Source of the DNA: an uncultured Collinsella sp.
GTDB taxonomy: Bacteria > Actinomycetota > Coriobacteriia > Coriobacteriales > Coriobacteriaceae
Assembly (NCBI GenBank): GCA_900768435.1
Contig: CAAGCW010000003.1
Span: 4,599-68,598, forward strand
DNA length: 64,000 nt
Direction: 5' to 3'
The position numbers and the translations under genes are program-made. This document shows, one piece after another, positions 4,942 through 20,254 of this stretch. Within the stretch, counting starts at the first letter, position 1; each line of letters opens with the position of its first letter. The notes below the pieces were generated by a model. The model made no database searches and was not told the origin of the DNA. It worked only from the letters and a program-made list of their open reading frames with translations.

Positions 4942-5620
4942 GGGCACCTCTTCCGTCAAATACAGCATCGCACGCCAGCGCAATGGTAATGCCGACCACG
5001 ACGCTTGCCGGCACGGCAATATTCACGAGGCCCAAGAACTTGCATACGGCGACGGACACCGCGCCCGAAACCGCCGCGACAACGTTGCCGCGCGACAGCC
5101 GCTGCGAAAAGAGCAGGCAGATAAAGAGCGAGGTGCAGACAAAGGCTGCAATGGCGGTGGGAACATCGACAACGGCGCCGACGATGGCGCCCGTCGTACA
5201 CGATACGCCCCATGTTGCGATAAGGATCACGTTGAGCACAAAGGACTCGCGCGGGCCCCAATCCTCCCCTTCAACCAACTTGGCAAGCGAGATGCCATAT
5301 GCCTCCTCGGTAAGTGTCGCGGCAACAGCCAGCGTCTGACGCTTCGAGGCACCCGTCAGATGCGACGTGATCGATGCCGAGTAAAGCGCAAAGCGCGAGG
5401 AGATGGCAGCAACGCTCGCGACGATCGACGCCGCAGGCACACCTGCCAGCCACAGATTGCAGATCATAAACTGCCCGCTGCCCGTCACGAACGTGCTGCT
5501 CAGAGCAAAGACCATCCAGGGTTCCATTCCCGTCTGCCCCATGATCATTCCGCACGGCGCGCCTATTGCAACATAGGTAAGCATCACTGGCCAGACGGTT
5601 CTAACGATTTTGAGCACCAT
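4928..5620 (-). CDS. azlC: AzlC-family branched-chain amino acid permease
   Basis: Polytopic membrane protein with AzlC-like sequence. Start placed at MVLKIVRT (internal ATG of the longer ORF). Confidence 0.65.
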   Translation of the reverse strand: MVLKIVRTVWPVMLTYVAIGAPCGMIMGQTGMEPWMVFALSSTFVTGSGQFMICNLWLAGVPAASIVASVAAISSRFALYSASITSHLTGASKRQTLAVAATLTEEAYGISLAKLVEGEDWGPRESFVLNVILIATWGVSCTTGAIVGAVVDVPTAIAAFVCTSLFICLLFSQRLSRGNVVAAVSGAVSVAVCKFLGLVNIAVPASVVVGITIALACDAVFDGRGARDAR

Positions 5621-5746
5621 ACGCTTCTCATCCTGACAAGGTCTCCGAGCCGCATGTAGCGACACGGCAGAATCATCATCCGACAGCAACCGAGTTCGCC
5701 TACAATTGCCACCGGATCGAAAGACACAACTTTTTAGGAAGTCATT

Positions 5747-6559
5747 ATGACAGCTATCGATCGAGACCGGGCGCGCGCGGCCTTCAAAAGCTACACCGAT
5801 GCCTACGACGCCACCAACCCACGCATCGCGCTCAAAATCGAGCATACGTACCACGTGGCCGAGGCATGCGATGCCGTAGCACGCGAGCAGGGCTGGTCGT
5901 CAGAAGATATTGACCTGGCATGGCTTTGCGGCCTGCTACACGATATGGGCCGCTTTGAGCAGTTGCGGCGCTGGGACACCTTTAAGGACGCCGAGAGCAT
6001 GAGCCATGCAGCGCTGGGCATCGAGGTCCTCTTTGGCGAGAATCCCGCCGATGCACCCGCCGTAACGAGCATCCGCGACTTTATCGATGACCCGGCAGAA
6101 GATGAGCTCATCCGAGCGAGCATTGCCTATCACAGCGATTTTCGTCTACCCGCGCAGCTCGACGAGCGTACGCGGAGCTTCTGCGATATCGTGCGCGATG
6201 GTGACAAGATCGACATTATGCGCACCATCGCCGACAGCACCGTCGACACCATCCTCAAGGTGGATGAGGACGCGTTTCTAGCCAGTCGCTTCTCGGCACC
6301 GACGCTTGCCGCCTTTGACGAGCACCGCTGCGTCACGCGCGATGAGCGCGATGAGCCCGCAGACTACCTGGTGGGACTCATCTGCTTTATGTTTGAGCTC
6401 GTCTATCCAGCGAGCCGCGCGCTGGCGCGCGAACAGGGCGATATCCACCGCCTGCTCGATGCGCCCTTTGGCATTGCACGGCCCTTTACCGACCCCGCCA
6501 CGCAGGCAACCTGGAGCCGCCTAAAGGACGAGATGCGCGACTGGCTGACGCGCGCTTAG
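5747..6559 (+). CDS. HD-domain phosphohydrolase
   Basis: Metal-binding H...HD motif (LLHDMGR) with later DGDKID. RBS aggaag. Confidence 0.7.
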   Translation: MTAIDRDRARAAFKSYTDAYDATNPRIALKIEHTYHVAEACDAVAREQGWSSEDIDLAWLCGLLHDMGRFEQLRRWDTFKDAESMSHAALGIEVLFGENPADAPAVTSIRDFIDDPAEDELIRASIAYHSDFRLPAQLDERTRSFCDIVRDGDKIDIMRTIADSTVDTILKVDEDAFLASRFSAPTLAAFDEHRCVTRDERDEPADYLVGLICFMFELVYPASRALAREQGDIHRLLDAPFGIARPFTDPATQATWSRLKDEMRDWLTRA

Positions 6560-7761
6560 CGCTCAAGCTGAGCCAGCAGCTCCTCAACGATCTCAACGGC
6601 ATCGCCGACGACCTTATACTGGGCAGCACCGAAGATGGGGGCATCCGGGTCCTCATTGATGGCGACAATGCACTCCGCCCCACCGATGCCGGCGAGATGC
6701 TGGATAGCGCCCGAGACACCGATGCTCACGAGGAGCTTGGGCGAGACCGATACACCCGTCTGGCCAATTTGGTGGCGATACTCCAACCAGCCTGCCTCCA
6801 CAATGGGACGCGTGCAACCAAGCTCGGCACCCAGGGCATCGGCGAGCTTTCGCATCAGGGGCAGATTCTTCTTGGAGCCGATGCCGCGGCCCACCACGAC
6901 CAGACGCTCGGCATCGGCAATTGAGGCCTGCTGTCCCCACTCCTCGGCGGGAATCGAGATCTCGACGCGGGCCTTAACGTCATCCGCAAGCACTACCTGG
7001 GTAATCGTGCCGGAGCGGCTATAGTCAAACTCGGGCGCCTTAAAGATGCCGGGGCGCACCGTTGCCATCTGAGGACGGTGGTTGGGGCAGATAATGGTGG
7101 CCATCAGGTTGCCGCCAAACGCCGGGCGTGTCTGCTGCAGCAGACCCGTCTCCGTATCCATCGAAAGCACCGTGCAATCGGCCGTAAGACCCGTCTGCAA
7201 GCGCACGGCCACACCGGGCGCCAGCTCGCGACCAAAGGCGGTCGCGCCGTACAGAATGGCCTCGGGCTTGCGCTCGGCTACCAAATCGCAGATCAAGCGA
7301 GCGTAGACCTCCGCGTCGTTCTGACGCAGGCGCTCGTCACGACAGACCAGAACTTCGTCCGCACCGGCGCAAATCAGATGCTCCAGGTCCCCGAGTGAGC
7401 CCTCGGGGCTCATGCCGACCAGTGCCACCAGACGGCAGCCGCGGGCATCGGCAAGCTCGCGCCCCTTGCCCATGAGCTCGAAGGCCACGGATGCAACGGC
7501 ATCGTGCTCGTCAGTCTGCACGAAGATCCAGATGTCTCGATATGCGTCAAGGTCTGCCGCGCCGGCGGCCTCGTCGCGCTCAATCGAGATGGCGTTGACG
7601 GGGCAGGCATCGACGCACCCACCGCACAGGATACAGCCGTCGGTTACGCGGGCACAGCGATTGGGGCGCTCACCCTCCACCACAATGCCGCCCGAGGCGC
7701 AGGCGCGAACGCAGCGACCGCAGCCGATACAGGCTTCGCTATCGATAATCAGCCCGCTCAT
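6556..7761 (-). CDS. etfA: Electron transfer flavoprotein alpha subunit with N-terminal 2x[4Fe-4S] ferredoxin domain (LctC-like)
   Basis: Two CxxCxxCxxxCP motifs in the first 60 aa, followed by the EtfA FAD-binding region. Its ATG abuts the etfB stop (ATGGCATAGATG). Confidence 0.8.
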   Translation of the reverse strand: MSGLIIDSEACIGCGRCVRACASGGIVVEGERPNRCARVTDGCILCGGCVDACPVNAISIERDEAAGAADLDAYRDIWIFVQTDEHDAVASVAFELMGKGRELADARGCRLVALVGMSPEGSLGDLEHLICAGADEVLVCRDERLRQNDAEVYARLICDLVAERKPEAILYGATAFGRELAPGVAVRLQTGLTADCTVLSMDTETGLLQQTRPAFGGNLMATIICPNHRPQMATVRPGIFKAPEFDYSRSGTITQVVLADDVKARVEISIPAEEWGQQASIADAERLVVVGRGIGSKKNLPLMRKLADALGAELGCTRPIVEAGWLEYRHQIGQTGVSVSPKLLVSIGVSGAIQHLAGIGGAECIVAINEDPDAPIFGAAQYKVVGDAVEIVEELLAQLER

Positions 7762-8583
7762 CTATGCCATCCCCTCAATAATCTTGGCAAGTTTTACCGC
7801 CTGCTCGGACGCCGTTCCCTCAACGGCCTCGCACGTTTGGTCACGGTCGGGCACAAACGAGCGCACGACCTGCGTCGGTGATCCGGCAAGGCCGCAACGC
7901 GAGGGATCGGCGTTTACGTCGGCAGCGCTGGCCACACGCACGTCTGCATCCTCGGCCGCGCGAATACCGGCAATACTCGGCATGCGCAGCTGGCCAATCT
8001 CCTTGGCGGTCGTCATCGCACACGGCATCTCCAGGTACACCGTCTCCTCGCCGGCATCGCAGCCGTGAACGAGCGCCAGCGAGCCACACGTCGTAAATCC
8101 CGCGCTCTGCACACAGCTCACGTCGGTCACGCAGGGGACCCCAAAGGCGACGGCCAGCTCGGGGCCGATCTGGGCCGTATCGCCGTCCACTGCCATCTTG
8201 CCGCAGATGAGCAGGTCAAAGTCCTCATCGAGTGCCTCGATGCCGCATTTGAGGGCATAGGTGGTGGCTAGGGTATCGGCGCCCGCAAAGGCGCGATCGG
8301 TCAGCAGCAGCGCGTCGTCGGCACCGCGGGCGATGCAGTCGCGCAGCAGCGATTCGGTCGCGGGGATGCCCATCGACACCACCGTCACACGCACGTCCAT
8401 GCCAAAGCCGATAAAGTCGTCCTTCAGCGCTAGCGCACATTCGAGGGCACTTGCATCGAAGGGATTAACGACCGCCTGCTTGCCATCACGCACGATAGTA
8501 TTGGTCTTGGGGTCCATCTTGACCTCGGTGCTTCCGGGCACCGCCTTGACGCACACCACCATATGGAAATCACTCATCTTCAC
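7762..8583 (-). CDS. etfB: Electron transfer flavoprotein beta subunit
   Basis: EtfB-like N-terminus MVVCVKAVPGSTEV. GTG start overlaps the TGA stop of the upstream FAD oxidase. Confidence 0.8.
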   Translation of the reverse strand: MKMSDFHMVVCVKAVPGSTEVKMDPKTNTIVRDGKQAVVNPFDASALECALALKDDFIGFGMDVRVTVVSMGIPATESLLRDCIARGADDALLLTDRAFAGADTLATTYALKCGIEALDEDFDLLICGKMAVDGDTAQIGPELAVAFGVPCVTDVSCVQSAGFTTCGSLALVHGCDAGEETVYLEMPCAMTTAKEIGQLRMPSIAGIRAAEDADVRVASAADVNADPSRCGLAGSPTQVVRSFVPDRDQTCEAVEGTASEQAVKLAKIIEGMA

Positions 8584-10181
8584 GCGCCCCCTTTCTGGAC
8601 GAGTTCATCCAAGAGCTTCTCCGTAAACAGGTTGCCGCGACCCAGCTGGCCGGCAGGATCAAGCTGGAGTTTGAGACGCGCCGACTCGACCATGGCCTCG
8701 TGGCCGTACATCGTCTCCAAGAAGCCCGCCTTGATCTTGCCGACGCCGTGTTCGGCAGAAACGGCACCGCCCATGGCCGTGACCTCGGAAGCCCACTGGG
8801 CAAAGAGCTCTCCACCACGACGGTAGTCTTGCGCATCGCGCGGCAGGATGTTCACATGCAGATGGTTGTTCCCGATGTGTCCCCAGGCAGCAGACTCAAG
8901 CCCGCTTTCGGCCAGCGTGCGGCGATAGAGGGCCACGACATCGGCAAGGCGTGCATTGGGCACCGACATATCCGATCCCAGCTTGGTAATGGTGGGGTCG
9001 GTGCGGCGACGCTCGTCAATGAGCATGTTGACGCTCTCGGGCACCGCGTGGCGGAAGAACCGCTGGCACTCGCGATCGACTTCGTTGCGGGCGACCCATG
9101 TCGCATCGTCGCGGCCGCCCGCAAGCTCCAGCACCCATCCCAAGTGGTACAGCTCCTCGGTCGCCTGCGCCTCGTCATCGCAATCGAGCTCCACGTAGAC
9201 ACATACCTTGGCCTCTTTGTCGAGCGCCGGCAGCGAGGCAAACGCCGTCGACTGCTCGCGCTGGCGACGTAGAATATCCAGGGCGCCAGCATCGAAGTAC
9301 TCGATGGCAGCCGCATGGGACAGGACAGGGCGCACGGAATCGGTAAAGGACACCGCCTTGTCCTCGCTATCGAAAAAGCAACTCACACCCCAAACGACCG
9401 CAGGCGCCGCCTGCAGGGCAATCTCAAGCTCGGTGATAACGCCGAGCGTGCCGCACGCGCCGATAAAGAGGTCGATGGCGTCCATATCGTCCGCAACGAA
9501 ATAGCCTGAGGCATTTTTTGTCTCGGGCATGGTATAGCCGGGAAGATCGAGCTCGAGCGTACGGCCCTCTGCCGTCACGAGCGACAGGTGGCGGCCCTGG
9601 GCAAAAGCCTCGCCGCGCTGGAGCTCAAGCAAATCGCCATCAGCCAGCGCGACGTGGAGTCCCGTGATATGTGGGCGCATGGGGCCGTAGGCGTAGCTGC
9701 GGGCACCGGAGGCGTTACATGCCGCCATGCCGCCCAGACAGGCAGACGCCTCGGTGGGATCGGTGGGAAAGAACTGCTCGGGGGCCTCTTGAAACTCATC
9801 GTAGGCCTTAAGCGATGCCTGGTCCCAACCAGCGGTCGGCAGCATCTTCTTGCTCAGCTGCTTGCGCAGCTCCGAGAGCACAACGCCCGGCTCCACGCGC
9901 AGCAAAAATTGGCCTTGTTCATCGCGGCGAAGGCCCAAGTAGCGATTCATACGGGAAGTATTGAGGATATGCCCGCCGTGGGGCACGGCACCGGCGGCAA
10001 GGCCGGTTCGGGCGCCCTGAACCGTTACCGGGACACGCTCGGCATGGAGCGTTTCCAAAATGGCACGGACCTCGTTTTCCGTTGTCGGAAACGAGATGCT
10101 CGATGCTTCGCCCGATGCGCGAGATTCATCGCGGCCATACTCTTCGAACTCGTCGGTGAAGGGTTTGATGGTTGCAGACAC
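8580..10181 (-). CDS. FAD-linked oxidase (GlcD / D-lactate dehydrogenase family; LctD-like)
   Basis: FAD_binding_4-type N-terminal domain (VTVQGARTGLAAGAVP) plus an FAD-oxidase C-terminal domain. Translationally coupled to etfBA. Confidence 0.75.
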   Translation of the reverse strand: MSATIKPFTDEFEEYGRDESRASGEASSISFPTTENEVRAILETLHAERVPVTVQGARTGLAAGAVPHGGHILNTSRMNRYLGLRRDEQGQFLLRVEPGVVLSELRKQLSKKMLPTAGWDQASLKAYDEFQEAPEQFFPTDPTEASACLGGMAACNASGARSYAYGPMRPHITGLHVALADGDLLELQRGEAFAQGRHLSLVTAEGRTLELDLPGYTMPETKNASGYFVADDMDAIDLFIGACGTLGVITELEIALQAAPAVVWGVSCFFDSEDKAVSFTDSVRPVLSHAAAIEYFDAGALDILRRQREQSTAFASLPALDKEAKVCVYVELDCDDEAQATEELYHLGWVLELAGGRDDATWVARNEVDRECQRFFRHAVPESVNMLIDERRRTDPTITKLGSDMSVPNARLADVVALYRRTLAESGLESAAWGHIGNNHLHVNILPRDAQDYRRGGELFAQWASEVTAMGGAVSAEHGVGKIKAGFLETMYGHEAMVESARLKLQLDPAGQLGRGNLFTEKLLDELVQKGGA

Positions 10182-10527
10182 GCGAACTCCCCCTTTAGCT
10201 AACTACAGTGTTTGCAGGGAGATGTTACCGCATCGTTTCGTCGACGTGTTCGAGACCGTCTCCATAATTGGCGATTTTTACGTTCGTGCAATTCGGCGAG
10301 CGGCTGGATTTCCTCGGCAGACGATGCTTTTGACAAATATCGCCCCGCCGTCGCCGATCGCGTAAATGTCGCTCGAAAAAAGTTGAAGTAATTTTTTCCA
10401 CCTTTTACCTGCGGAGATGTCAATCCGTCAAGCATTTGGTCAGAAATTGGTCAAGTAGCGGCTGATACGGTCGGCGTCGACAGCCAAAACCGATAGAAGT
10501 TTTGGCCCCAGAAGCAGGGAGGTTCCC

Positions 10528-10824
10528 ATGGCATATTACTGGCCCCAGTACGGCGTCGCCATCGAGGTCGACGACGATCCCTATCTCCTGCCTTTCGACG
10601 AAGAGGCGTTCCCCGATACGGCGGTCTACCACGTCACCACCGATGTTATCTGCGACCCCGAGTCGTTCTCGGCGCTCGCCCACCACATCGCGCGTATCCA
10701 CGACATCGAGCTCCCTCACGACTTTGACGAGCTCATCTACTCGCGCCGCCTGATGCTTCACATGCTCTTTGGAGCGGACCCGTCCACGTTCGCACGTGTC
10801 TACACCACCAAGGACGCCGCATGA
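10528..10824 (+). CDS. Hypothetical acidic cytoplasmic protein (98 aa)
   Basis: Strong RBS agggagg. ATGA overlap with the next gene. Confidence 0.5.
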   Translation: MAYYWPQYGVAIEVDDDPYLLPFDEEAFPDTAVYHVTTDVICDPESFSALAHHIARIHDIELPHDFDELIYSRRLMLHMLFGADPSTFARVYTTKDAA

Positions 10825-11330
10825 GTGCGAAGAAGCCGCCCCGCCTCGCAGGACTGGGGCGTCGAAAGAAACTCGTCGTTGTCTGTCTGGCTATCGTCTG
10901 CGCCCTCATCGCCGTAGGGCTATACGCCTGGCAGTCGCAGCCCGTGCCCGAAGCGGGCGCCTCAGTCACGACGGCAGAGGGTAAATCGCGACAAGAAATC
11001 CAAGATGAGCTCGATGCCATCGTCCGCGACAACATGATGACGATTTCGGTCGCGCCGGTCGCTCAGCTACAGGAGGACGGCAAGCTGCGCGTCAACGTGC
11101 AAAACGTCCAAGACAATAAATTTCCCCAGCGATTCCGCGTCATCCAAAACGACGAGACCATGTACGAATCCGGTGTGGTCGAGACCGGCAAGACAATCGA
11201 GACGTGCCCCGCCGGCGACATCAAAGAAGGCGAGGCATACATCGAGATCCAGGCACTCGATGCCAAGACCCTCGACAGCCACGGCAATCCGACACGTGTC
11301 AAGGTACGGGTTGAGCAAGCCGAGAACTAG
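10821..11330 (+). CDS. Hypothetical membrane-anchored protein (basic N-terminus, one TM helix, extracytoplasmic domain)
   Basis: KKPPRLAGLGRRKK followed by the TM helix VVVCLAIVCALIAVGLYAW. Translationally coupled to the upstream ORF. Confidence 0.55.
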   Translation: MSAKKPPRLAGLGRRKKLVVVCLAIVCALIAVGLYAWQSQPVPEAGASVTTAEGKSRQEIQDELDAIVRDNMMTISVAPVAQLQEDGKLRVNVQNVQDNKFPQRFRVIQNDETMYESGVVETGKTIETCPAGDIKEGEAYIEIQALDAKTLDSHGNPTRVKVRVEQAEN

Positions 11331-11420
11331 CTTTTTCGGCCGACGCGGCACCGCACGCAATTCACCAGCATTCGTCCAATCATCGCGGGGACGGCCCGCG
11401 GCGAATAGAAAGGAACGACC

Positions 11421-12020
11421 ATGGACATCACCAGGAACATGAACGGAGCCAGAGCGCTCGTCGTGGGCGCAGGGCTCGCGCTCGCGCTCGCAATGGGCGC
11501 CGCCCCGACGCCAGCTCTGGCAGCCGGGCGCGTTGGAACCACGAAAGTAATGGTCAGGACCGAGATCGACAACGTAGAGTTCAAAGTTCCGACGGTTATT
11601 CCCTTCGTCGCCAAGGCCGACGGCACGCTTCAGGGCCCCTCAGAAGACGCGACCACCATCGACAATCATTCGGCCTACGGCATCCATGTCACCAACATGA
11701 AGATCGACGCCATGAACACCTGGACCATTGCCGCCGACGCCAAGGCCGGAACCGCGCAGAATTCCATCGACTTTAAGGTCGGCCCCGACGGCGCACTCCA
11801 GAACGCCAGCGCCGCAATGCAGGAGACGGGCCTCGATCTTTCCAAGAATGCAGCCTTCGACATGGGCTACCAGGGCATTGCCGGCGGCACGGACAAAATT
11901 AAGCTCAAGACAAGCGGAAACGTCGCCCGCGTCACGCGCGACATCTTCCGCGTAACCGGCGAAGGCGATCAAGTTGCAACGATCACCTGGACGGTCGAGC
12001 CCGGTGCGCACACGGCATAA
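11421..12020 (+). CDS. Hypothetical secreted protein (199 aa) with two T-W-T-[IV] motifs
   Basis: Signal peptide ending ALAAGR. Beta-rich composition. Motifs NTWTIAAD and ATITWTVEP. Confidence 0.55.
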   Translation: MDITRNMNGARALVVGAGLALALAMGAAPTPALAAGRVGTTKVMVRTEIDNVEFKVPTVIPFVAKADGTLQGPSEDATTIDNHSAYGIHVTNMKIDAMNTWTIAADAKAGTAQNSIDFKVGPDGALQNASAAMQETGLDLSKNAAFDMGYQGIAGGTDKIKLKTSGNVARVTRDIFRVTGEGDQVATITWTVEPGAHTA

Positions 12021-12285
12021 GGCCGTCGCCCTGGCCACCGCCGTCAGTATCCTAGCGTTTGGGCCAGCCATGGCCTTTGCCCAGCAAGAACAGGCGCAGG
12101 CCGCCACGCAGGTGACGGTCGACCTCTCGGAGCTCGACCGCGGCAACTGCAAGGAACCGTTGGCACAGACAGACGACAGACGATGGCTCTTGGCAGCAGG
12201 CGCCACGGCAGCAGGCGCGGGAACCGCCGGCCTCGGTCTGCACATCAAACGCAGCCAGAAACGAAACACGGACAGGCCGCACTAA
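12004..12285 (+). CDS. Small secreted protein with a C-terminal hydrophobic anchor and basic tail (sorting-signal-like architecture)
   Basis: GTG start gives the signal peptide VRTRHKAVALATAVSILAFGPAMAFA. C-terminus is LAQTDDRRW-LLAAGATAAGAGTAGLGL-HIKRSQKRNTDRPH. Confidence 0.45.
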   Translation: MRTRHKAVALATAVSILAFGPAMAFAQQEQAQAATQVTVDLSELDRGNCKEPLAQTDDRRWLLAAGATAAGAGTAGLGLHIKRSQKRNTDRPH

Positions 12286-12303
12286 ATTAGCTAAGGAGAC
12301 CCC

Positions 12304-13734
12304 ATGGCATCGAAGAACCTTTTGCCCGTCGTCGCACTCTGCGGCGCGCTCGCAACCGGAACGCCTGTCGCCGCTTGGGCGACTCCCGTCATGGCAGACT
12401 CCTTACCAGCAGCCCTAAGCTCCGCACCAAATCCGTCGAGCGCCATTGCGTGCAAGCGTTTTTCGTTCGCACAGGCCGCAATCTCAACCTCGGGATGCCT
12501 TCGTCGTAATACGGACGGCTCGATAGTCGTGGATATCAATCGTTCGAACAAGGCAAACGGCTCCCAGGCGGGGTGCGCCGTCTGCACGTGGCGCTCGATT
12601 GTGCTCGATGCAGATGGCGATCCGTGCGATTTGGGGTTGCGCATCGATATCGCTTCGGTCGATGACTCGGCGAACGGAGCGAAGGTCGCCTTCGACGGTG
12701 CGTTTTTCGAGAAAGGAGGCGGTATATGTCTGGGCTGCGCCGCCGCGAATGCAGACGATGTGCAGCCCACCCTCTCATTCACGGCATCGCTGCGGCTGAC
12801 CAAGGCGGGCACCGATGCCATCGCGGCGGGAGAAGCATCCCTGCTGTTCTACGCCGCCAGCACCGAAGAAACAGACATTCATTTCGAGAAGCCGGCCGGA
12901 TCGCTCAGCCTTACGCGCGGGACGGAGGCAGGCCCTATTGCGATCGATACCCACACGCTAGGCAGGCAACGCATTCTTGCCGACCCGGCGCTTCTCGAGA
13001 TGGAGTGGAACGGATCCGGAGCCGTCGGGATTGTCCCCTCCGCGCTTGACGCCAAGACGCTCCCCTCAAACGACGAACCCATCAACGCAACCATACAAGA
13101 AGAGAGCACGGACAAAGAAGCAGGTGCGGGCGACACGCCGTCGCCGACAAACAGCGTCCCAGCTTCTTTCGAAGCACCGAATGAGCCCGCTACCGGTCCA
13201 AACGATCCCGAGCTCGCGGACAGTCTGGGGCTTGCTGATCCTCAGGAGATCGATGAAGGTAACTGCTGCGTGCTTGCCGCCCTCGACCACACAGAGGTCA
13301 TCGATGCTGCAAACATCGAAGTTGCCGCCGCCAATCAGCCCGTCCGCAAGTCGGCCATCATCGCATTTCCCGAATCCATCGAAGTCGTCTTTTTGCCATC
13401 GGGCGAGGTCGTGGCCCCAACACTGCTCACCTTGTTGGGCGCCAAGAATACTCGAAACGAAATTAAAAAGGTCACGGTTGTCGACCCTGCAACCACCGCT
13501 AAACTGCGTCTATACGCCGTTGCCCCAGACGGAGGCAAGACCTTGGAATTCGATGGCGACACACTTCTAGCCTGGCGACGTCTGGACATTATGCAAGACG
13601 TCTCGTATCAGATCGAACTCGAAGGGTTTGATCGTGCCCGCGATGCCAATATCATCGCCGCGGCTATTGAATCCCCGCAGCGGCTTATGACACTGCGCTT
13701 TGACTACTACCCCTATGTCCCGACAACCACCTGA
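12304..13734 (+). CDS. Large hypothetical secreted protein (476 aa) with a Cys-containing N-terminal region
   Basis: RBS aaggag. Signal peptide MASKNLLPVVALCGALATGTPVAAWA. No recognised domain. Confidence 0.55.
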   Translation: MASKNLLPVVALCGALATGTPVAAWATPVMADSLPAALSSAPNPSSAIACKRFSFAQAAISTSGCLRRNTDGSIVVDINRSNKANGSQAGCAVCTWRSIVLDADGDPCDLGLRIDIASVDDSANGAKVAFDGAFFEKGGGICLGCAAANADDVQPTLSFTASLRLTKAGTDAIAAGEASLLFYAASTEETDIHFEKPAGSLSLTRGTEAGPIAIDTHTLGRQRILADPALLEMEWNGSGAVGIVPSALDAKTLPSNDEPINATIQEESTDKEAGAGDTPSPTNSVPASFEAPNEPATGPNDPELADSLGLADPQEIDEGNCCVLAALDHTEVIDAANIEVAAANQPVRKSAIIAFPESIEVVFLPSGEVVAPTLLTLLGAKNTRNEIKKVTVVDPATTAKLRLYAVAPDGGKTLEFDGDTLLAWRRLDIMQDVSYQIELEGFDRARDANIIAAAIESPQRLMTLRFDYYPYVPTTT

Positions 13735-13852
13735 GGCTTAAATGCTGCGCATCATTCCTAATACCACTTATATAACGTATTAGATGAGTCGCGATGTGCC
13801 TCGCATTTCGTTCTGCTACGATTGCCACGTTGGCATCAATACAGGAGGGCTC

Positions 13853-14569
13853 ATGCCGGGCTTGGGAACAATCATCAACGTTGCGCTTTTAGTTGCGGGC
13901 GGTCTTTTGGGATTAGCGGGCGGCCGCTTCATTACACCGCGCATCCAAGACACGCTCATGAAAGCATCGGGGCTGTGCGTCCTGTTTATCGGCCTGGGCG
14001 GCACCATGCAAAAGATGCTCATCATCGATGGAAAGGCGCTAGCGACCACCGGTACCACCATGCTCATCGTCTCATTTGCGCTCGGTTCGCTCATCGGCGA
14101 GGCCATCAACTTGGAGGCCTCCATCGAGAACCTTGGCGAATGGCTCAAGCGCAAGACTGGCAGTGAGGGCGATAACGAGTTCACCAACGCTTTTGTCTCG
14201 ACTTCACTCACCGTGTGCATCGGCGCCATGGCCATTGTGGGATCGATCCAGGACGGCCTGCTCGGCGACTGGTCAACGCTTGCCCTCAAGGGCGCACTGG
14301 ACTGCATCATCGTCTGCACCATGACGGCGTCGCTCGGACGCGGCTGCATCTTCTCGGCCCTGCCCGTCGCCGTGTTCCAGGGGACGATCACGTTGTTTGC
14401 CGGCGCGCTCTCCCCCATCATGACCACGGCAGCCCTCAACAGCCTTTCGCTCGTAGGCTCCATGCTCATCTTCTGCGTCGGCGTCAACCTCATCCGTCCT
14501 CAGACCTTCCGCACGGCCAATATGCTTCCCTCCGTCGTCATCGCCGTCATATACGCCCTCCTGTTCTAA
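13853..14569 (+). CDS. DUF554-family membrane protein
   Basis: Six-TM protein resembling YdfK/DUF554. RBS aggaggg before the ATG at 13853. Confidence 0.6.
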   Translation: MPGLGTIINVALLVAGGLLGLAGGRFITPRIQDTLMKASGLCVLFIGLGGTMQKMLIIDGKALATTGTTMLIVSFALGSLIGEAINLEASIENLGEWLKRKTGSEGDNEFTNAFVSTSLTVCIGAMAIVGSIQDGLLGDWSTLALKGALDCIIVCTMTASLGRGCIFSALPVAVFQGTITLFAGALSPIMTTAALNSLSLVGSMLIFCVGVNLIRPQTFRTANMLPSVVIAVIYALLF

Positions 14570-14656: not shown

Positions 14657-16411
14657 GTGGCCGACCAGGACATCAAGATGCTCATCGAGCGCATTATGGC
14701 CGAGGCCCGGACCCATCAGTCCGCCCGCTTCTCAAACGAAACCTACGCAGACGAGCCGATTCTCAAAACCGGCCGACAGATGCAGAATTTCCTCCCCGAC
14801 CAGTACCGTAAAATGCGCGAGATATCGCGCTGGCAGGATGACCCCAAGGGCGGTGCGGGCCGCTGGCTTTCGGAAGCCGAGCTTTTTTACCGCCAGGGCC
14901 TGCTGATGGCCGGCTTTGAGGACGACTGTCCCTACAACGGCACCTTTAAGTCGTACTTTCCCACCTACAACGCCATGAGCGACCGGCAACTGCGCGGCTA
15001 CTTTACCTGGCGTGCCCAAGTGCGCCGCGGAACCGTCGAGGAAACGTCTACGTCCTTTGCCTTTCTGTATCTCTATGAGCTGATCTGCGGCATTGGCATA
15101 GATGACCCGCTCGATGGTTTTAACAAGATCAAGGCTTTTTGGGATGTCTATCGCGCCTTCGAGCCCGGCATCGACCGGTTTGCGCGCGTGTGGCTGCAAG
15201 ATTACGCCGTGTTCCACGGGCTCGACCCCAAGCTGCTTCGCGACTCTAAAACCGTCATGTTCGATAACGCCCTTATCGAACTGCGGCGCGCGGCACGAGA
15301 CCTTGTACCGGCACCGTCCGGCCAGACCCCTAAGCGTCGCAAAACCTCCGAGCCCACGCTCCCCCTTCCGCCCGATGAGGTGCGCGAGGAGCGACTCATG
15401 GCCGCCATCAACGCCCTCTCCACGTACAACCTAAGTAGCTCGCGGCTCGACCGCAGCCACCACCGCGATCTGCGCCACGTGGCGTGCGCCGTGTATGTCC
15501 GCATGGCGCGCTACTATGACACGCACCGAAAGACCGGCATCGTGGCAAGTTTATTTGGGGAGGAGACGGCAATGCCCTACACCATGTTTGCCTCGGCCGT
15601 ATTCTTTGCGCCCGAGCGCCACGAGGACTGCGAATACCGTCTGGACCCCATCCATATCTACCGTTGCCAAAACGGCTTTTGGGAATGCATGCGTATCCAC
15701 GGTAGTAGGCAAAAGAGCAGCAAGCTCGGTGAAATGATGCGCGCCTGCGACCAACGCCTGCGCCTGGCGCTGGACCCTGCCCATCCCCTTAAGGAAGAAA
15801 AGGCCCCCAAATATCTGGCCAAGATTATCGATGACGAGATTGTGGCATGGCTTTCGTGGGACGCCGCACACCAGCCCGTCAAGATCGATATCGATCTGAG
15901 TCAGCTGGGGCATATTCGGAGCGCCGCCGCACAAACGCGCGAGGCGCTTTTGATTGACGAGGAACGCGAGGACGGCGCGTCCGCAGAAGCCGAGGCAGCG
16001 GACTCAGGGCAACCAGAAGCCGAGCCCGTAGCCGACGCGATGGTCGAGGCGGTCGCGGCGGCTGCAGGGCAGGACGAGTCCGACGAGCCGACCATATCCA
16101 CCGAACAGTTTGGTGTCGTGGCACCGCTTCTCGCGCCGACGCCCGCGTTCGCAGCTGCTACGCCCGCTGACGCCACAAACGAACTCGCGCCCGCCGCAAA
16201 CGCCTATCTCCGCGCTCTGCTCGAGCACAACGCAGTACAGGCGGAATCGGCGGTAGTGCAATCGGAGCAGAGCGAGGACATGCTCGTCGATACCATCAAC
16301 GAGGCGCTCTTTGACCTGGTGGGCGACACCGTAATTGAATTTAGCGCAGCAGGGCCGCAGATTATCGAGGACTACGAAGCAGACGTGAGAGGATACCTAG
16401 ACCATGAGTGA
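14657..16411 (+). CDS. sngA: TerB-N / TerB-C domain protein (Shango SngA-like)
   Basis: N-terminal region with the YFTWR signature (RGYFTWRAQVRRG) typical of TerB-N, and an acidic C-terminal region consistent with TerB-C. ATGA-coupled to the next gene. Confidence 0.6.
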   Translation: MADQDIKMLIERIMAEARTHQSARFSNETYADEPILKTGRQMQNFLPDQYRKMREISRWQDDPKGGAGRWLSEAELFYRQGLLMAGFEDDCPYNGTFKSYFPTYNAMSDRQLRGYFTWRAQVRRGTVEETSTSFAFLYLYELICGIGIDDPLDGFNKIKAFWDVYRAFEPGIDRFARVWLQDYAVFHGLDPKLLRDSKTVMFDNALIELRRAARDLVPAPSGQTPKRRKTSEPTLPLPPDEVREERLMAAINALSTYNLSSSRLDRSHHRDLRHVACAVYVRMARYYDTHRKTGIVASLFGEETAMPYTMFASAVFFAPERHEDCEYRLDPIHIYRCQNGFWECMRIHGSRQKSSKLGEMMRACDQRLRLALDPAHPLKEEKAPKYLAKIIDDEIVAWLSWDAAHQPVKIDIDLSQLGHIRSAAAQTREALLIDEEREDGASAEAEAADSGQPEAEPVADAMVEAVAAAAGQDESDEPTISTEQFGVVAPLLAPTPAFAAATPADATNELAPAANAYLRALLEHNAVQAESAVVQSEQSEDMLVDTINEALFDLVGDTVIEFSAAGPQIIEDYEADVRGYLDHE

Positions 16412-17699
16412 TACCGCATCCGCAGCACCTCGCGTGCCCAAGCGCGTCGCTGCCGTCATTCTCAACTCGCTCAAGGGCGGCGTGGTCCCGCGCATCGGCC
16501 TTCCTTACATCACCGTAGGGCGCGAGGTCGAGATCCGCGCCCTGCTCACCGATCTGAGTCTCATCGCCGACGGTGGCGCGAGCTTCCGCTTTCTGGTCGG
16601 TCGTTACGGCGCCGGCAAGAGCTTTTTGCTCCAGACTATCCGCACGCACGCCATGGGCGAGGGGTTCGTCGTCGCCGATGCCGACCTTTCCCCCGAGCGC
16701 CGACTGCAGGGCGGTCAGGGGCAGGGCCTCGCTACCTACCGCGAACTCATCCGCAACATATCGACCAAGACGCGCCCCGAGGGCGGCGCACTCAACCTTA
16801 TCCTAGATCGTTGGGTTGCCTCGTGTGCCGATGCCGACGAGTCGGCCATCAATGCCCAGCTCGCTCCGCTCGAGGAGATGGTCCACGGCTTCGATTTCAC
16901 CCGTATGCTCCGTCGCTATCGTACGGCCGTCGCAGAGGGAGACGAAGAGGCCATGAGCCGCGTGACTAAATGGATTCGCGGCGAGTATCGCACCAAGAGC
17001 GAGGCGCGCGCCGAGCTAGGCTCCTCGACCATCATCAGCGACGACGACTGGTACGACTACGTCAAGCTCATCGCACGCTTTTTGGTCTGCAGCGGCTACA
17101 AGGGCATGCTGGTGCTCATCGACGAACTTGTAAACCTGTACAAGATTCCCAACGCCATCACGCGCCAATACAACTACGAGAAGATCCTGACCATGTACAA
17201 CGACACGCTCCAGGGCAAGGCGCAGTACCTGGGCATGATCATGGGCGGCACGCCAACCTCCATCGAAGACCGCCGCCGCGGCGTGTTCTCCTACGAGGCC
17301 CTGCGCAGCCGACTCGCTCAGGGCCGCTTTGCGCGCGAAGACCTTAAGGACATGCTCGCGCCCATCATCCGCCTGCAGCCACTCACCTATGAGGAGTTGC
17401 TGGTGCTCATCGAAAAACTCATGCAGATCCATGCCGGCTACTTTGGCTGGACGCCCACGCTTGCCGAAAACGACTTGGTGGACTTTCTCAAGATTGAGTT
17501 TGGTCGCGTGGGAGCCGATACGCACCTTACGCCGCGCGAGGTCATTCGCGACTTTATCGAGCTGCTCGATATCCTGTGTCAGAACCCCGATGCCAACGTG
17601 GCCGAGCTGCTGCAAAGCGTCGGTGGCGATGCTCTCGCGCCGGCCAGCGAGTCGTCCGCATCATCCGACGAGCGCAACTTCGCCGAATTCACCATCTAA
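16404..17699 (+). CDS. sngB: P-loop ATPase (DUF2791/BrxD-like; Shango SngB-like)
   Basis: Walker A GRYGAGKS and a Walker B-like LVLIDE. About 430 aa, consistent with defence-associated ATPases. Confidence 0.6.
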   Translation: MSDTASAAPRVPKRVAAVILNSLKGGVVPRIGLPYITVGREVEIRALLTDLSLIADGGASFRFLVGRYGAGKSFLLQTIRTHAMGEGFVVADADLSPERRLQGGQGQGLATYRELIRNISTKTRPEGGALNLILDRWVASCADADESAINAQLAPLEEMVHGFDFTRMLRRYRTAVAEGDEEAMSRVTKWIRGEYRTKSEARAELGSSTIISDDDWYDYVKLIARFLVCSGYKGMLVLIDELVNLYKIPNAITRQYNYEKILTMYNDTLQGKAQYLGMIMGGTPTSIEDRRRGVFSYEALRSRLAQGRFAREDLKDMLAPIIRLQPLTYEELLVLIEKLMQIHAGYFGWTPTLAENDLVDFLKIEFGRVGADTHLTPREVIRDFIELLDILCQNPDANVAELLQSVGGDALAPASESSASSDERNFAEFTI

Positions 17700-17815
17700 C
17701 CTGCCAAAAAGGGACAGATTTATTTTGGAAGGTTTTATCTGGACAAACGTTAAGACAGCAGCGCAGCCACCCGTTGCCCATCAACCTGAGAGGTTCATTT
17801 TTGAGAGGAGGCCCC

Positions 17816-20254
17816 GTGAACGCCTTTGAGCGGTATGCCCCGTTTATCCAAGACTTCATCTACTCCCACGATTGGGAGAGCCTGCGCTCGATTCAGGTTG
17901 CGGCGGCAGACGCCATCTTTAACACGCAAGACAATGTGCTCCTGACGGCATCCACGGCTTCCGGCAAAACCGAGGCGGCCTTCTTTCCCATCCTGACCGA
18001 GTTTTGGGAAAACCCGCCCGCAAGCGTGGGCACCCTCTACATCGGCCCCCTCAAAGCACTCATCAATGACCAGTTTGTCCGCCTCAACGACCTCTGTGAA
18101 GAGGCCGATATTCCCGTCTGGCACTGGCATGGCGATGTCTCGCAGTCGCACAAGGCCAAGCTCATTAAAAAGCCGAGAGGCATCTTGCAGATTACACCTG
18201 AATCGCTCGAGGCGCTGCTCATTCACAAGCACATGGCGATTCCGCGCATGTTTTGCGACCTGCGCTATGTGGTCATCGACGAGGTGCATTCGCTCATGCG
18301 TGGCGACCGCGGCGGGCAGACGCTCTGCCTGATCGAGCGACTCTCGCGCATGGCCGGCGTGCAGCCCCGTCGCATTGGCCTTTCGGCTACCATCGGCGAC
18401 CCCGAGCGCACAGGCGCCTTTCTCTCGCAGGGAACGGGACGCGACTGCGTTATCCCCCGTTTTGAGGAACCGCGCCGCGTGTGGCGCATTTCCATGGAAC
18501 ACTTCTACAACTCGGGCCCCCAAGCGCAGCAGCGAGGATTCCAGAGCACGGGCCCTCAAGAAGCCGACGTGCTTGCGTGCGAGCGCATCGAGGCCGCGGT
18601 GCCTACGGCATTGCCCGCCGGTACCCAGGACAGACGCCGCGGCGGACAGCGCGCGCAGGAGGAACGCCGTCAGCGTCGCGAACAGGCACAGGGCGAGGCT
18701 ACCCCCAGGGATCACCGCACTTCTTCGGCCCCCGAGGGCGAAGTCGATATCCCGCGAGCAACCGAGCAGGCGCTCCTCAACCCCACCGACACCGCGCCCG
18801 ACAACGCCGACCCCGGCATGGGCTACATCTTTGAACACACGCGTGGCCGCAAGTGCCTGGTCTTTGCCAACTCGCGCGAGGAGGCGGAGGCCGTGTGCTC
18901 CATGCTGCGCAGCTACTGCGAGAACCGACACGAGCCCGACCGCTTTCTCATCCACCACGGCAATCTTTCGGCATCGCTGCGCGAGACGGCCGAGGAGCTG
19001 ATGCGCGACGAAGAGCAGGCGCAGACTACCGTCACCACCTCCACGCTGGAGCTCGGTATTGATATTGGCCGCCTGGAGCGAGCGTTTCAGATCGATGCAC
19101 CGTTTACCGTCAGCTCCTTTTTGCAGCGCATGGGCCGCACGGGACGCCGCGATCTTCCGCCCGAGATGTGGTTTGTCATGCGCGAGGAAGAGCCCGAGCC
19201 GCGCACGATGATGCCCGAGACCATCCCGTGGAAGCTCCTGCAGGGTATCGCACTCGTACAGCTCTATCGCGAGGAAAAGTGGGTCGAGCCGCCCGAGCTC
19301 GATCGACTCCCCTACAGCCTGCTCTATCACCAAACCATGTCGACGCTTGCCAGCACCGGCGAGGCCACGCCGGCCGAACTTGCTCAGCGCGTGCTCACGC
19401 TCAGCTATTTCCATCGCGTCTCGGCCGATGACTATCGCGTGCTGCTGCGCCACCTCATCAAGATCGACCATATTCAGGTTACCGAGGGCGGCGGGCTCAT
19501 CGTGGGTCTCGCGGGCGAGCGCGTCATTAACAACTTTAAGTTCTACGCCGTGTTCCAGGAAAACGAGGAGTTCACCGTTCGCAGCGAGTCGGCCGAGTTG
19601 GGCACGATCGTCAATCCGCCACCGCCCGGCGAGCGCATCGCCATTGCCGGACACTGCTGGATGGTCGAGGAAGTGGACTGGAAGCGTCACACCGTCTTTG
19701 CCACGCAGGTAAAAGGTCGCGTGCCGGCCTACTTTGGCGATTGCCCCGGCGACATCAACACACACGTGCTCGAACGCATGCGCAAGGCGCTGAACGAGCA
19801 CGCGTCATATCCGTACCTCATGGGTAACGCGCGGGCCCGCCTTGCACAGGCTCGTCATACGGCCGAGATTTCGGGCGCGGGAGCCAAGCCGCTCATCAAC
19901 CTGGGCGGCGACACCTGGGTACTCTTCCCCTGGCTGGGCAGCTACGCCTTCCTGGCGCTCGAGCGCATGCTCAAGATTAAATGTGCCGCCGAGCTGGGAC
20001 TTCGAGGGCTCGATCCGTCACGTCCGTACTTTATGCAGTTTAAGATGAAGGCCGACGAAGAGAGGTTCTTTGAGGTGCTCGCCGCCGAGGCCGAGAAGGA
20101 CTTCGATCCCATCGAGCTCGTCTATCCCGGCGAGGTGCCCTACTTTGATCGTTACGACGAGTTCGTTCCCGAGGAGCTTGTGCGCAAGGGCTTTGCCGAA
20201 GGCGTGCTCGACATAGAGGGCATGAAGCAACGCATCCTCAGCTGGACCAGCTAA
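17816..20254 (+). CDS. sngC: DEAD/DEAH-box superfamily-2 helicase (Lhr-like; Shango SngC-like)
   Basis: Motif I TASGKT, DEVH box (VVIDEVHS), SAT (LSAT), a HELICc region (ELGIDIG, QRMGRTGR) and a roughly 290 aa C-terminal extension. GTG start with RBS gagaggagg. Confidence 0.6.
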   Translation: MNAFERYAPFIQDFIYSHDWESLRSIQVAAADAIFNTQDNVLLTASTASGKTEAAFFPILTEFWENPPASVGTLYIGPLKALINDQFVRLNDLCEEADIPVWHWHGDVSQSHKAKLIKKPRGILQITPESLEALLIHKHMAIPRMFCDLRYVVIDEVHSLMRGDRGGQTLCLIERLSRMAGVQPRRIGLSATIGDPERTGAFLSQGTGRDCVIPRFEEPRRVWRISMEHFYNSGPQAQQRGFQSTGPQEADVLACERIEAAVPTALPAGTQDRRRGGQRAQEERRQRREQAQGEATPRDHRTSSAPEGEVDIPRATEQALLNPTDTAPDNADPGMGYIFEHTRGRKCLVFANSREEAEAVCSMLRSYCENRHEPDRFLIHHGNLSASLRETAEELMRDEEQAQTTVTTSTLELGIDIGRLERAFQIDAPFTVSSFLQRMGRTGRRDLPPEMWFVMREEEPEPRTMMPETIPWKLLQGIALVQLYREEKWVEPPELDRLPYSLLYHQTMSTLASTGEATPAELAQRVLTLSYFHRVSADDYRVLLRHLIKIDHIQVTEGGGLIVGLAGERVINNFKFYAVFQENEEFTVRSESAELGTIVNPPPPGERIAIAGHCWMVEEVDWKRHTVFATQVKGRVPAYFGDCPGDINTHVLERMRKALNEHASYPYLMGNARARLAQARHTAEISGAGAKPLINLGGDTWVLFPWLGSYAFLALERMLKIKCAAELGLRGLDPSRPYFMQFKMKADEERFFEVLAAEAEKDFDPIELVYPGEVPYFDRYDEFVPEELVRKGFAEGVLDIEGMKQRILSWTS

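Follow-up and report, generated by a model that had tools for sequence, protein, structure and literature searches.

The WxL/Csc clusters of Lactobacillales, Listeria and Enterococcus have been described as CscA-D, as SwpA/LwpA/DufA and as the Elr operon (PMC9772566, PMC1534035). Every such locus encodes both a small and a large WxL protein together with a protein that has DUF916 (and DUF3324), and often a small LPxTG protein as well (PMC9772566). The WxL domain carries two WxL motifs on adjacent strands, the second of which is C-terminal, while a D-x-R-G-T-x-A-G turn precedes the first; an Asp (W1-8), an Arg (W1-6) and the GTxAG turn are conserved (PMC9772566). As for sortase signals, LAXTG is documented for class E sortases of Actinobacteria (PMC5148588), and the class-B-type sortase of C. 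difficile cuts at (S/P)PXTG motifs, of which SPKTG is an example (PMC4155245). Here we analyse an operon of five genes (g1 to g5, 10528 to 13734) in a stretch of 64,000 nucleotides (hereafter the window) from an uncultured Collinsella sp. (assembly GCA_900768435.1, contig CAAGCW010000003.1), which probably encodes a multi-protein cell-surface complex of Collinsella aerofaciens. This species is among the most prevalent Actinobacteria of the human gut, and to our knowledge almost nothing is known about protein display on its surface.

What supports a surface complex directly is the gene content, the export or anchor signals on g2 to g5, the conserved module of g2, g3, g4 and a large protein, the linkage to sortases in related clusters and the fusion of the g3 domain to adhesin modules; from these we infer the surface localisation, the binding partners and the acting sortase. 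The locus shares with the WxL/Csc clusters that it is an operon for exported proteins of gut commensals, with a small protein (~160-180 residues when mature) that has two Trp-x-aliphatic motifs, the second C-terminal, a small LPxTG-type sorted protein (g4 here, and a counterpart in each of seven other cluster types), a membrane-anchored accessory protein and, in relatives of the window operon, a large variable protein in which the same domain is combined with adhesin or leucine-rich-repeat (LRR) modules. It differs in that g2 is N-terminally anchored and unrelated in sequence to the DUF916/DUF3324 protein, in that four related clusters have dedicated class-B-like sortases, and in its host, a high-GC (guanine plus cytosine) member of the Coriobacteriia. 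Like the C. difficile SrtB system (PMC4155245), related clusters have class-B-like sortases; their g4-like substrates carry SPKTG, IPKTG, LGQTG, LVNTG, LDETG or YGKTG ahead of the hydrophobic stretch and basic tail, and the motifs of the sortase-bearing clusters resemble (S/P)PXTG. The window cluster, by contrast, has no sortase and the motif LAQT[DG]. Class E substrates (PMC5148588) are matched by g4 in its LAQTG form (25 of 80 loci) and in having a hydrophobic segment rich in Ala and Gly before its basic tail; the window allele, however, reads LAQTD. Finally, as with TapA and TasA of B. subtilis biofilm fibres (PMC10151520), a small wall-associated protein would have a strand similar to that at the N-terminus of the main secreted subunit; unlike that pair, the proteins have no sequence relation to TasA, camelysin or TapA, there is no SipW, and the anchor is a sortase signal.

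The operon and its genes

The open reading frames (ORFs) of the five genes are co-directional and lie at the following positions; the two Trp motifs and the sorting signal were read from the sequence, and the alternative start of g4 from its reading frame.

10182 to 10527, no strand: divergent intergenic region with the presumed promoters of both operons, GC 0.49-0.53
10528 to 10824, + strand: g1, acidic cytoplasmic protein of 98 residues, isoelectric point 4.4, no hydrophobic segment
10821 to 11330, + strand: g2, type-II membrane protein of 169 residues with a basic head, one transmembrane segment and an acidic ectodomain of ~130 residues
11421 to 12020, + strand: g3, secreted single-domain protein of 199 residues with a signal-like segment and two Trp motifs
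11718 to 11729, + strand: first Trp motif of g3, T-W-T-I, residues 100-103
11985 to 11996, + strand: second Trp motif of g3, T-W-T-V, residues 189-192, 7 residues from the C-terminus
12004 to 12285, + strand: g4, small sorted protein of 93 residues from GTG, with signal peptide, mature part of ~30 residues and sorting signal
11974 to 12285, + strand: g4 from the alternative start TTG at 11974, 103 residues
12160 to 12282, + strand: C-terminal sorting signal of g4, LAQTD (12160-12174), then DRRWLLAAGATAAGAGTAGLGLHI, then KRSQKRNTDRPH
12304 to 13734, + strand: g5, large variable secreted protein of 476 residues with signal peptide, Cys-rich domain, linker and C-terminal domain

The spacing of the genes is tight: g1 and g2 overlap by 4 nucleotides (ATGA), the start of g4 overlaps the 3' end of g3, and the gaps amount to 90 nucleotides between g2 and g3 and 18 between g4 and g5. 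The original prediction, made from the letters of the window, had described just such a row of tightly spaced or overlapping genes for a small acidic cytoplasmic protein, a protein anchored by a single transmembrane segment (g2 has one strong N-terminal hydrophobic segment), a secreted protein of 199 residues with two T-W-T-[IV] motifs, a protein of 93 residues in which LAQTD is followed by a hydrophobic stretch and a tail rich in Lys and Arg, and a Cys-containing secreted protein of 476 residues, and this observation is confirmed by the coordinates and by the features given above. It also holds that the families were unrecognised. None of g1 to g5 has a match with a meaningful E-value in Pfam or NCBIfam, and sequence and profile searches of the PDB (with g3, g5 and profiles of the g3 and g2 families) gave matches at chance level only; a match to a well-known family, which had been named as one outcome that would count against the prediction, was found by none of these searches.

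The five genes are real genes and not chance ORFs, since their order is kept in six long contigs, the g4 ORF is present in 79 of 80 Collinsella genome loci and the proteins are conserved in a locus of another Collinsella species (L010). In the six contigs the identical gene order extends to the divergent Etf operon and the downstream genes, and 13,496 blocks of the assembly index list the exact g3 protein. The loci retrieved with the Collinsella g3 alignment were all from Collinsella, at an identity of at least 99%, and the host of the operon is Collinsella aerofaciens or a close relative. Signal peptides were called from hydrophobicity, from the -3/-1 rule applied by eye and from the conservation of A32 and A34 across the g3 family.

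The 346-bp intergenic region (10182-10527) has a GC of 0.49-0.53, compared with ~0.60-0.63 on the flanking sides, and divides the g1-g5 operon from a divergent operon for an FAD-linked, lactate-dehydrogenase-like oxidase, EtfB and an EtfA-ferredoxin fusion, which the original prediction had called the lactate-dehydrogenase/Etf operon. A promoter scan of this region gave one weak sigma-70-like match (10241-10268), which was not above shuffle expectation, and a scan for terminators likewise gave nothing above it. A riboswitch or other RNA element in the leader or the spacers was considered and rejected: no Rfam family was found there at E<=1, and the folding of the g2-g3 spacer was no better than that of shuffled sequences (z = 0.18).

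The module, its protein families and related clusters

Eight further cluster types (L010, L007, L092, L094, L095/96, L098, L099 and L100), with a GC of 36-66%, have the module, in the invariant order of a g2-like gene, a g3-like gene, a g4-like gene and a gene for a large protein; the exceptions are L094, which has no g4, and L098, where the large protein is reduced to DUF285 fragments. A g4-like gene comes after the g3-like gene in seven of the eight (L010, L007, L092, L095, L098, L099 and L100). The L010 locus is syntenic with the window; the others are built as follows.

L007, 60% GC: TED/SpaA adhesin with LPQTG; g2-like; g3-like; g4-like with LGQTG, hydrophobic stretch and RKRG; large protein of 571 residues; sortase of 242 residues
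L092, 58% GC: g2-like; g3-like; g4-like with SPKTG; DUF285/LRR protein of 992 residues with a C-terminal g3 domain
L094, 48% GC: g2-like; g3-like; protein of 575 residues with an internal g3 domain, DUF5648 and Flg_new; no g4
L095/L096, 38-39% GC: g2-like; g3-like; g4-like with a PKD-like spacer and IPKTG; DUF285 protein; sortase
L098, 36% GC: plasmid-like (ParA, ParB, SSB, NikA-like); sortase; g2-like; g3-like; g4-like with LVNTG; DUF285 fragments
L099, 65% GC: adhesin ending in LDETG; sortase; g2-like; g3-like; g4-like with LDETG; large protein of 424 residues
L100, 62% GC: g2-like; g3-like; g4-like with YGKTG; large protein of 1087 residues

A sortase gene is adjacent in four of these clusters (L007, L095, L098 and L099). 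For the sortases of L007, L095 and L098 the best family is class B (TIGR03064, E-values of 3e-23 to 9e-33), at 82-113 bits and thus below the equivalog cut-off of 153.75, and their catalytic His, Cys and Arg align; the L099 sortase is 38% identical to that of L095. The window operon belongs to a broader, previously unrecognised set of clusters linked to class-B sortases. In L099 (2-5426) the unusual motif LDETG ends both a large adhesin, itself wall-anchored, and the g4-like protein; a class-B-like sortase lies beside them, and one sortase probably serves both. The L098 copy of the module lies on a contig (1-16079) with ParA, ParB, SSB and a NikA-like gene, which suggests that it is carried on a plasmid or other mobile element; a tblastn search of PLSDB with a plasmid-like g3 relative gave no match.

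The g3 family was collected by running a profile built on 18 Collinsella sequences through 1.84 billion cluster representatives; at E<=1e-3 it counts 416 of these, each standing for a 50%-identity cluster (218 at E<=1e-10). In 120 members (g3 and 119 diverse relatives) no Pfam or NCBIfam model matches the g3 domain, and from these searches g3 is taken to be the founder of an undescribed domain family. The signal peptide of g3 ends in ALA at residue 34, with A32 and A34 conserved across the family. Among the 120 members N82 is invariant (120), and G68 (119), P57 (118) and S84 (117) are nearly so. At the first motif, column 101 is Trp in 65 and Phe in 46 and column 103 is I/L/F/V in 109, while at the second, column 190 is Trp in 102 and column 192 is V/F/L/I in 114. 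The consensus runs from the signal peptide through G-x-T-x-V-T-V, a variable linker, L-x-F-x-V-P-T-x-I-x-F, ADGTL-x-GPS, I-x-N-x-S-x-F-x-IHV, [WF]-x-[ILFV]-V-x-D, N, GP, WNM and G to A-T-I-x-W-[TY]-[VFL]-x-x-G.

The domain occurs either as a standalone protein or fused, at either end, to DUF285/PARCEL repeats, BspA-type LRR_5 or DUF6273, and full or partial g3-like domains are present in the large proteins of L007 (where the C-terminal part matches the g3 profile with an E-value of 3e-6), L092, L094, L097, L099 and L100. DUF285/PARCEL, BspA-type LRR and DUF6273 are typical surface or adhesion modules. Because it is found fused at either end to such modules, the g3 domain behaves as a portable module, which would serve surface retention or assembly. 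The family is probably not confined to one phylum, since its contigs span 34-66% GC, and this eases the reservation of the original prediction that a surface complex of this kind was speculative for an actinobacterium. A subfamily of g3-like domains (including L097, and L094 at 5411-6088) has an Asp/Gly-rich insertion of very variable length, GEYGGT...NPD-x-DGDG-x-GDN, between the first strand and the remainder of the domain, which looks like a putative calcium-binding loop.

In g2, the transmembrane segment (~residues 12-40, with a Kyte-Doolittle 19-residue mean of up to 2.9) follows a head rich in Lys and Arg. A g2-like gene is located directly upstream of the g3-like gene in L010, L007, L092, L094, L096, L098, L099 and L100, that is, in every cluster with upstream sequence at hand, and the matches of the g2 hidden Markov model (HMM) among these genes include E-values of 8e-54 and 6e-53. 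No Pfam domain was found in seven members of the g2 family, DUF916 and DUF3324 included, nor was a credible relative in the PDB. The g2-like proteins thus appear as a separate undescribed family that provides the conserved first gene of the module. By contrast with this core, g1 is seen only in Collinsella-type loci: it is 70% identical in L010, has no homologue in the seven other cluster types and has no match in Pfam, NCBIfam or PADLOC, and it is, as judged from this distribution, lineage-specific and outside the core. That it might be a detached cytoplasmic domain of g2 was rejected, as it has no similarity to the long N-terminal extensions of the g2-like proteins of L092 and L100. The N-terminus of g1 (YYWPQYGVAIEVDDD) has a weak Pfam match only, to the restriction-endonuclease N-terminal domain PvuRts1I-like_N (E-value 0.22). 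In total, the locus would add three domain families that are absent from Pfam and NCBIfam.

When read from the GTG at 12004, g4 begins with MRTRHKAVALATAVSILAFGPAMAFA followed by QQ, and its signal-like segment ends in AFA. This extension coding for the signal peptide, together with its reading frame, is kept in L001-L006 and L010; the call of 71 residues from an ATG is without a signal peptide. The mature peptide, QQEQAQAATQVTVDLSELDRGNCKEPLAQT, has ~30 residues before the sorting motif, after which come the Ala/Gly-rich WLLAAGATAAGAGTAGLGLHI and KRSQKR. Ala/Gly-rich hydrophobic segments are usual in actinobacterial sorting signals; in g4 the hydrophobicity of this segment is modest, being below the Kyte-Doolittle threshold of 1.6. 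The motif starts 41 residues from the C-terminus, compared with the 17-45 residues of the criterion for LPXTG-like signals (PMC4155245). Among the 80 Collinsella loci it is LAQTD in 54 and LAQTG, an exact instance of LAXTG, in 25, and in the divergent clusters it is LAQTA (L010), LGQTG, SPKTG, IPKTG, LVNTG, LDETG or YGKTG. Every g4-like tail consists of xxxT[GDA], a hydrophobic stretch and a basic tail, while the remaining sequence is unalignable; what the g4-like proteins share is a signal peptide, a short T-x-V-x-V strand, the sorting tail and their position in the operon. That the form has been kept while the sequence has not speaks strongly for the tail as a functional sorting signal, so that the sorting-signal-like build noted for g4 in the original prediction is borne out by the LAQTG alleles and by the xxxT[GA] forms of the divergent clusters, four of which have an adjacent sortase. 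The dimorphism between LAQTD and LAQTG is linked to other changes in g4 (GNCKEP versus GDREEP, and KRSQKR versus KHSQKQ).

The largest protein, g5, consists of a signal peptide (residues 1-26, ending in AWA), an N-terminal Cys-rich domain (~30-245), an acidic hypervariable linker (~246-315) and a C-terminal domain (316-476). In the large protein of L007, the N-terminus is a homologue of this Cys-rich domain (blastp E-value 1.2e-5 in a six-protein database). When L010 is compared with the window, identity falls from 79% for the lactate-dehydrogenase-like protein to 70% for g1, 63% for g2, 57% for g3 and 31% for g5, which is thus the fastest-diverging gene of the operon. Moreover, its alleles are mosaic, with blocks of 98-100% identity abutting blocks of 18-50% and the acidic linker as the most variable part. 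One allele is 100% identical to that of the window over the first ~200 alignment columns, 18% in the linker and 52-74% in the C-terminal domain, and a second is ~98% identical towards either end, with 28-48% in between. Such a pattern is expected from recombination and diversifying pressure on an exposed protein, and the gradient of divergence together with the mosaic alleles would fit increasing surface exposure.

The ten Cys residues of g5 include two CxxC motifs, CAVC (residues 91-94, 12574-12585) and CLGC (residues 142-145, 12727-12738), and one CC (321-322). Most are invariant and C91 is nearly so, but the related domain in L007 does not share them. The host is an obligate anaerobe; for the Cys residues, metal binding or disulfides are both possible.

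The proposed surface complex and its alternatives

In the arrangement that we consider best supported, g4 would be the anchor: once exported, it would stay in the membrane through the C-terminal signal, in which LAQTG or LAQTD precedes the hydrophobic stretch and the basic tail, and, at least in LAQTG alleles, a sortase would join the mature peptide to peptidoglycan. The acting sortase would probably be a housekeeping enzyme of class E type that is encoded elsewhere and works in trans, because the LAXTG form fits class E and a dedicated class-B-like sortase appears to have been lost. The small, secreted and putatively beta-rich g3 and the large g5 have no anchor of their own, and would be retained non-covalently by binding to g4, to the ectodomain of the membrane-anchored g2 and/or to the wall. 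Exposed at the surface, g5 would bind ligands or vary antigenically, g2 would help from the membrane to assemble or hold the complex (a role proposed from its position only), and g1 would be a lineage-specific cytoplasmic add-on. This would give Collinsella a set of proposed surface components, with g4 as the candidate covalent anchor, g3 as the scaffold, g5 as the exposed hypervariable protein and g2 as the assembly factor.

Several results weigh against this arrangement. In the window allele, as in most of the Collinsella loci, the motif is LAQTD and not LAQTG, so that Asp replaces Gly after the cleavage site; we know of no sortase that accepts LAQTD, nor of Asp after the scissile Thr as a documented signal, and for that reason g4 may be only membrane-tethered in most strains, as LAQTD alleles in general may simply stay in the membrane. 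The dimorphism is in this respect a natural experiment on whether covalent anchoring is needed. The original prediction had proposed to look for a cognate sortase elsewhere in the genome. Sortase genes adjoin four related clusters, but tblastn with three of these enzymes gave no match, either within the 64 kb of the window or in flanks of 8-10 kb at ~90 Collinsella loci; the window copy is in this sense a sortase-less variant, and the Collinsella lineage would have lost the dedicated enzyme. The retention of g5 is the weakest link, because no g3-like domain is demonstrable in it by hhalign. The C-terminal domain had been considered as a divergent g3-like domain, given a likeness by eye of FPESIEVVFLPSGEVVAP in g5 to VPTVIPFVAKADGTLQGP in g3 and of LMTLRFDY to ATITWTVE, yet the hhalign score of 14-15 (probability <1%) is not significant and leaves the idea unproven. 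The AlphaFold2 models of g3 (18-sequence alignment) and g5 (23-sequence alignment), with a mean predicted local distance difference test score (pLDDT) of 37 and 44, respectively, are unusable, both having been built from shallow alignments before the deep alignment of the g3 family, and targeted literature searches gave no experimental data on these proteins.

It is doubtful that the cluster is a true and very divergent homologue of the Firmicute WxL/Csc clusters. On that view the small WxL protein, with non-covalent binding to peptidoglycan, would be g3, the small LPxTG protein of CscD type g4 and the large partner g5, with g2 in place of the DUF916 protein. The layout is shared (PMC9772566), in that a membrane-anchored accessory accompanies a large variable protein and two small ones, a domain protein and a sorted protein, and mature g3, with ~165 residues, has the size of a small WxL protein. 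Its aromatic-x-aliphatic motifs are 89 residues apart with the second at the extreme C-terminus, compared with 92 in E. faecalis WxL P0395, although the third position is mostly I/L/V/F and not strictly Leu as in WxL. The Pfam model PF13731, to which a WxL consensus used as a positive control scored 157 bits, does not match g3 at E<=1 or any of the 120 family members at E<=0.01. For a profile comparison, 120 proteins with a PF13731 annotation were retrieved with this consensus and 58 aligned, and 80 members of the g3 family were compared with these 58 by hhalign. With signal peptides included the probability was 72% (E-value 3.5e-5). Without them the alignment is collinear and scores 20.8 (P 0.0095), a score reached by none of 200 column shuffles (mean 10.3, standard deviation 2.3, maximum 17.7) and the highest of ten cross-comparisons among five exported families (the others being 11.0-17.8), but its probability amounts to no more than 4.3%, and reversing the sequence as a control gives a score of 15.2. 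What is paired are the first strands, F-x-V-P with the dFG strand, and the first Trp motif with the first WxL; in a permissive alignment only, WNM pairs with G-x-W and the C-terminal ITWTV with LTWTL. The signature D-x-R-G-T-x-A-G-W, which the 58 aligned WxL proteins show as VTDxRGTGAGW, is absent, g3 having HVTNMKIDAMNTW at this place and the family the consensus IHV....V.....W, whereas the invariant N82 and the nearly invariant S84 are both lacking in WxL. Neither DUF916 nor DUF3324 is present in g1 to g5 or in the seven g2-family members, the g3 domain can be N-terminal in large proteins where WxL is always C-terminal (PMC9772566), and dedicated sortases are not described for WxL loci. The interpretation in the original prediction, which had likened the operon to WxL clusters, is thus partly supported: the layout stands, while g3 lacks the PF13731 match and the turn motif and the operon lacks DUF916. 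The operon is best described as a WxL/Csc-like analogue by layout, its membership of the WxL family not being established, and common ancestry of g3 and WxL is possible but unproven. By this reading the design principle of the WxL/Csc clusters extends beyond low-GC Bacilli and can be combined with class-B-like sortases.

How g3 and g5 are held admits a more specific explanation, namely that mature g4 is a wall-anchored donor strand that completes or augments a g3-type beta-sheet, thereby tethering g3 and the large protein or nucleating a g3 polymer, by analogy to TapA with TasA and to the N-terminal extensions of chaperone-usher pilins; we consider this unlikely. Within the ~30 residues of mature g4 the only element kept between species is A-T-[QE]-V-T-V-D-L-S (ATQVTVDLS in the window), and in five of six clusters examined T-x-[VL]-x-[VIL] stands at the mature N-terminus of the g4-like protein and mirrors the first strand of the neighbouring g3-like protein (SGTTEVKV in g3 and TGSTDVTV in g4 of L007; TGTTDVTV and VATTDVYI in L098). 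In addition, the large proteins of L099 and L100 start, after the signal peptide, at the second g3-like strand, with the first strand missing, and strand complementation by a minor anchoring or chaperoning protein has a precedent in TapA-TasA (PMC10151520). Against this, the similarity is a short motif defined post hoc, and g3 has a first strand of its own and may be a self-complemented monomer. A match of g4 to the g3 HMM (E-values of 6.5e-5 to 1.6e-3) was rejected as caused by the signal peptides, mature g4 scoring ~1 bit, and neither TasA/camelysin (Peptidase_M73) nor SipW was matched by Pfam or NCBIfam in g1 to g5 or the 120 g3 relatives. The full version, in which g2, g3, g4 and the large protein form a new Gram-positive surface-assembly system, with sortase-anchored g4, in essence a single donor strand, completing incomplete g3-type adhesin domains in trans or priming their polymerisation, is to be regarded as unlikely as well. 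If true, it would allow the non-covalent but very stable docking of exchangeable, fast-evolving adhesins on one covalent wall anchor, and if in addition the weak g3-WxL similarity is real, strand donation could also explain what the small LPxTG proteins of the WxL/Csc clusters do, a long-standing puzzle. A classical pilus, with g3, g4 and g5 as pilins joined by a pilin-specific sortase, is very hard to reconcile with the sorting signal being on g4 only (g3 and g5 end without one), with the lack of a pilin Pfam domain (SpaA, GramPos_pilinD1 or pilin motif) in all three and with associated sortases that are class-B-like, not class C, and missing from the window, even though sortases adjoin related clusters, SpaA/TED-type adhesins are found beside the L007 module and a wall-anchored adhesin in L099. 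That the five genes are unrelated secreted or hypothetical proteins and merely neighbours would agree with the lack of a known function for any of them and with g1 being outside the conserved module, but it is already disfavoured, and scarcely credible, given that the ordered module is found in eight more cluster types, which differ widely in base composition and one of which is on a plasmid-like contig, and given start and stop codons that overlap or are close. A surface complex anchored through g4 is the reading that we retain as probable.

Neighbouring genes

On the - strand, 6556-10181 encodes an FAD-linked oxidase (FAD_binding_4 and FAD-oxidase_C), EtfB, and EtfA fused to ferredoxin-type 4Fe-4S domains, an arrangement which we take to be reminiscent of electron-bifurcating lactate dehydrogenase/Etf complexes. 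Downstream of g5, a gene for a DUF554 membrane protein (13784-14569, + strand; Pfam E-value 3e-66) lies between the surface operon and three putative anti-phage genes. It is syntenic in all Collinsella loci examined and has no match in PADLOC, and no evidence ties it to either neighbour. The three genes that follow (14657-20254, + strand) match the Shango anti-phage system in PADLOC, as SngA (TerB_N/TerB_C, E-value 7e-75), SngB (BrxD-like ATPase, 5e-170) and SngC (DEAD/BrxH-like helicase, 3e-275), and the trio is kept in six of the six long contigs.

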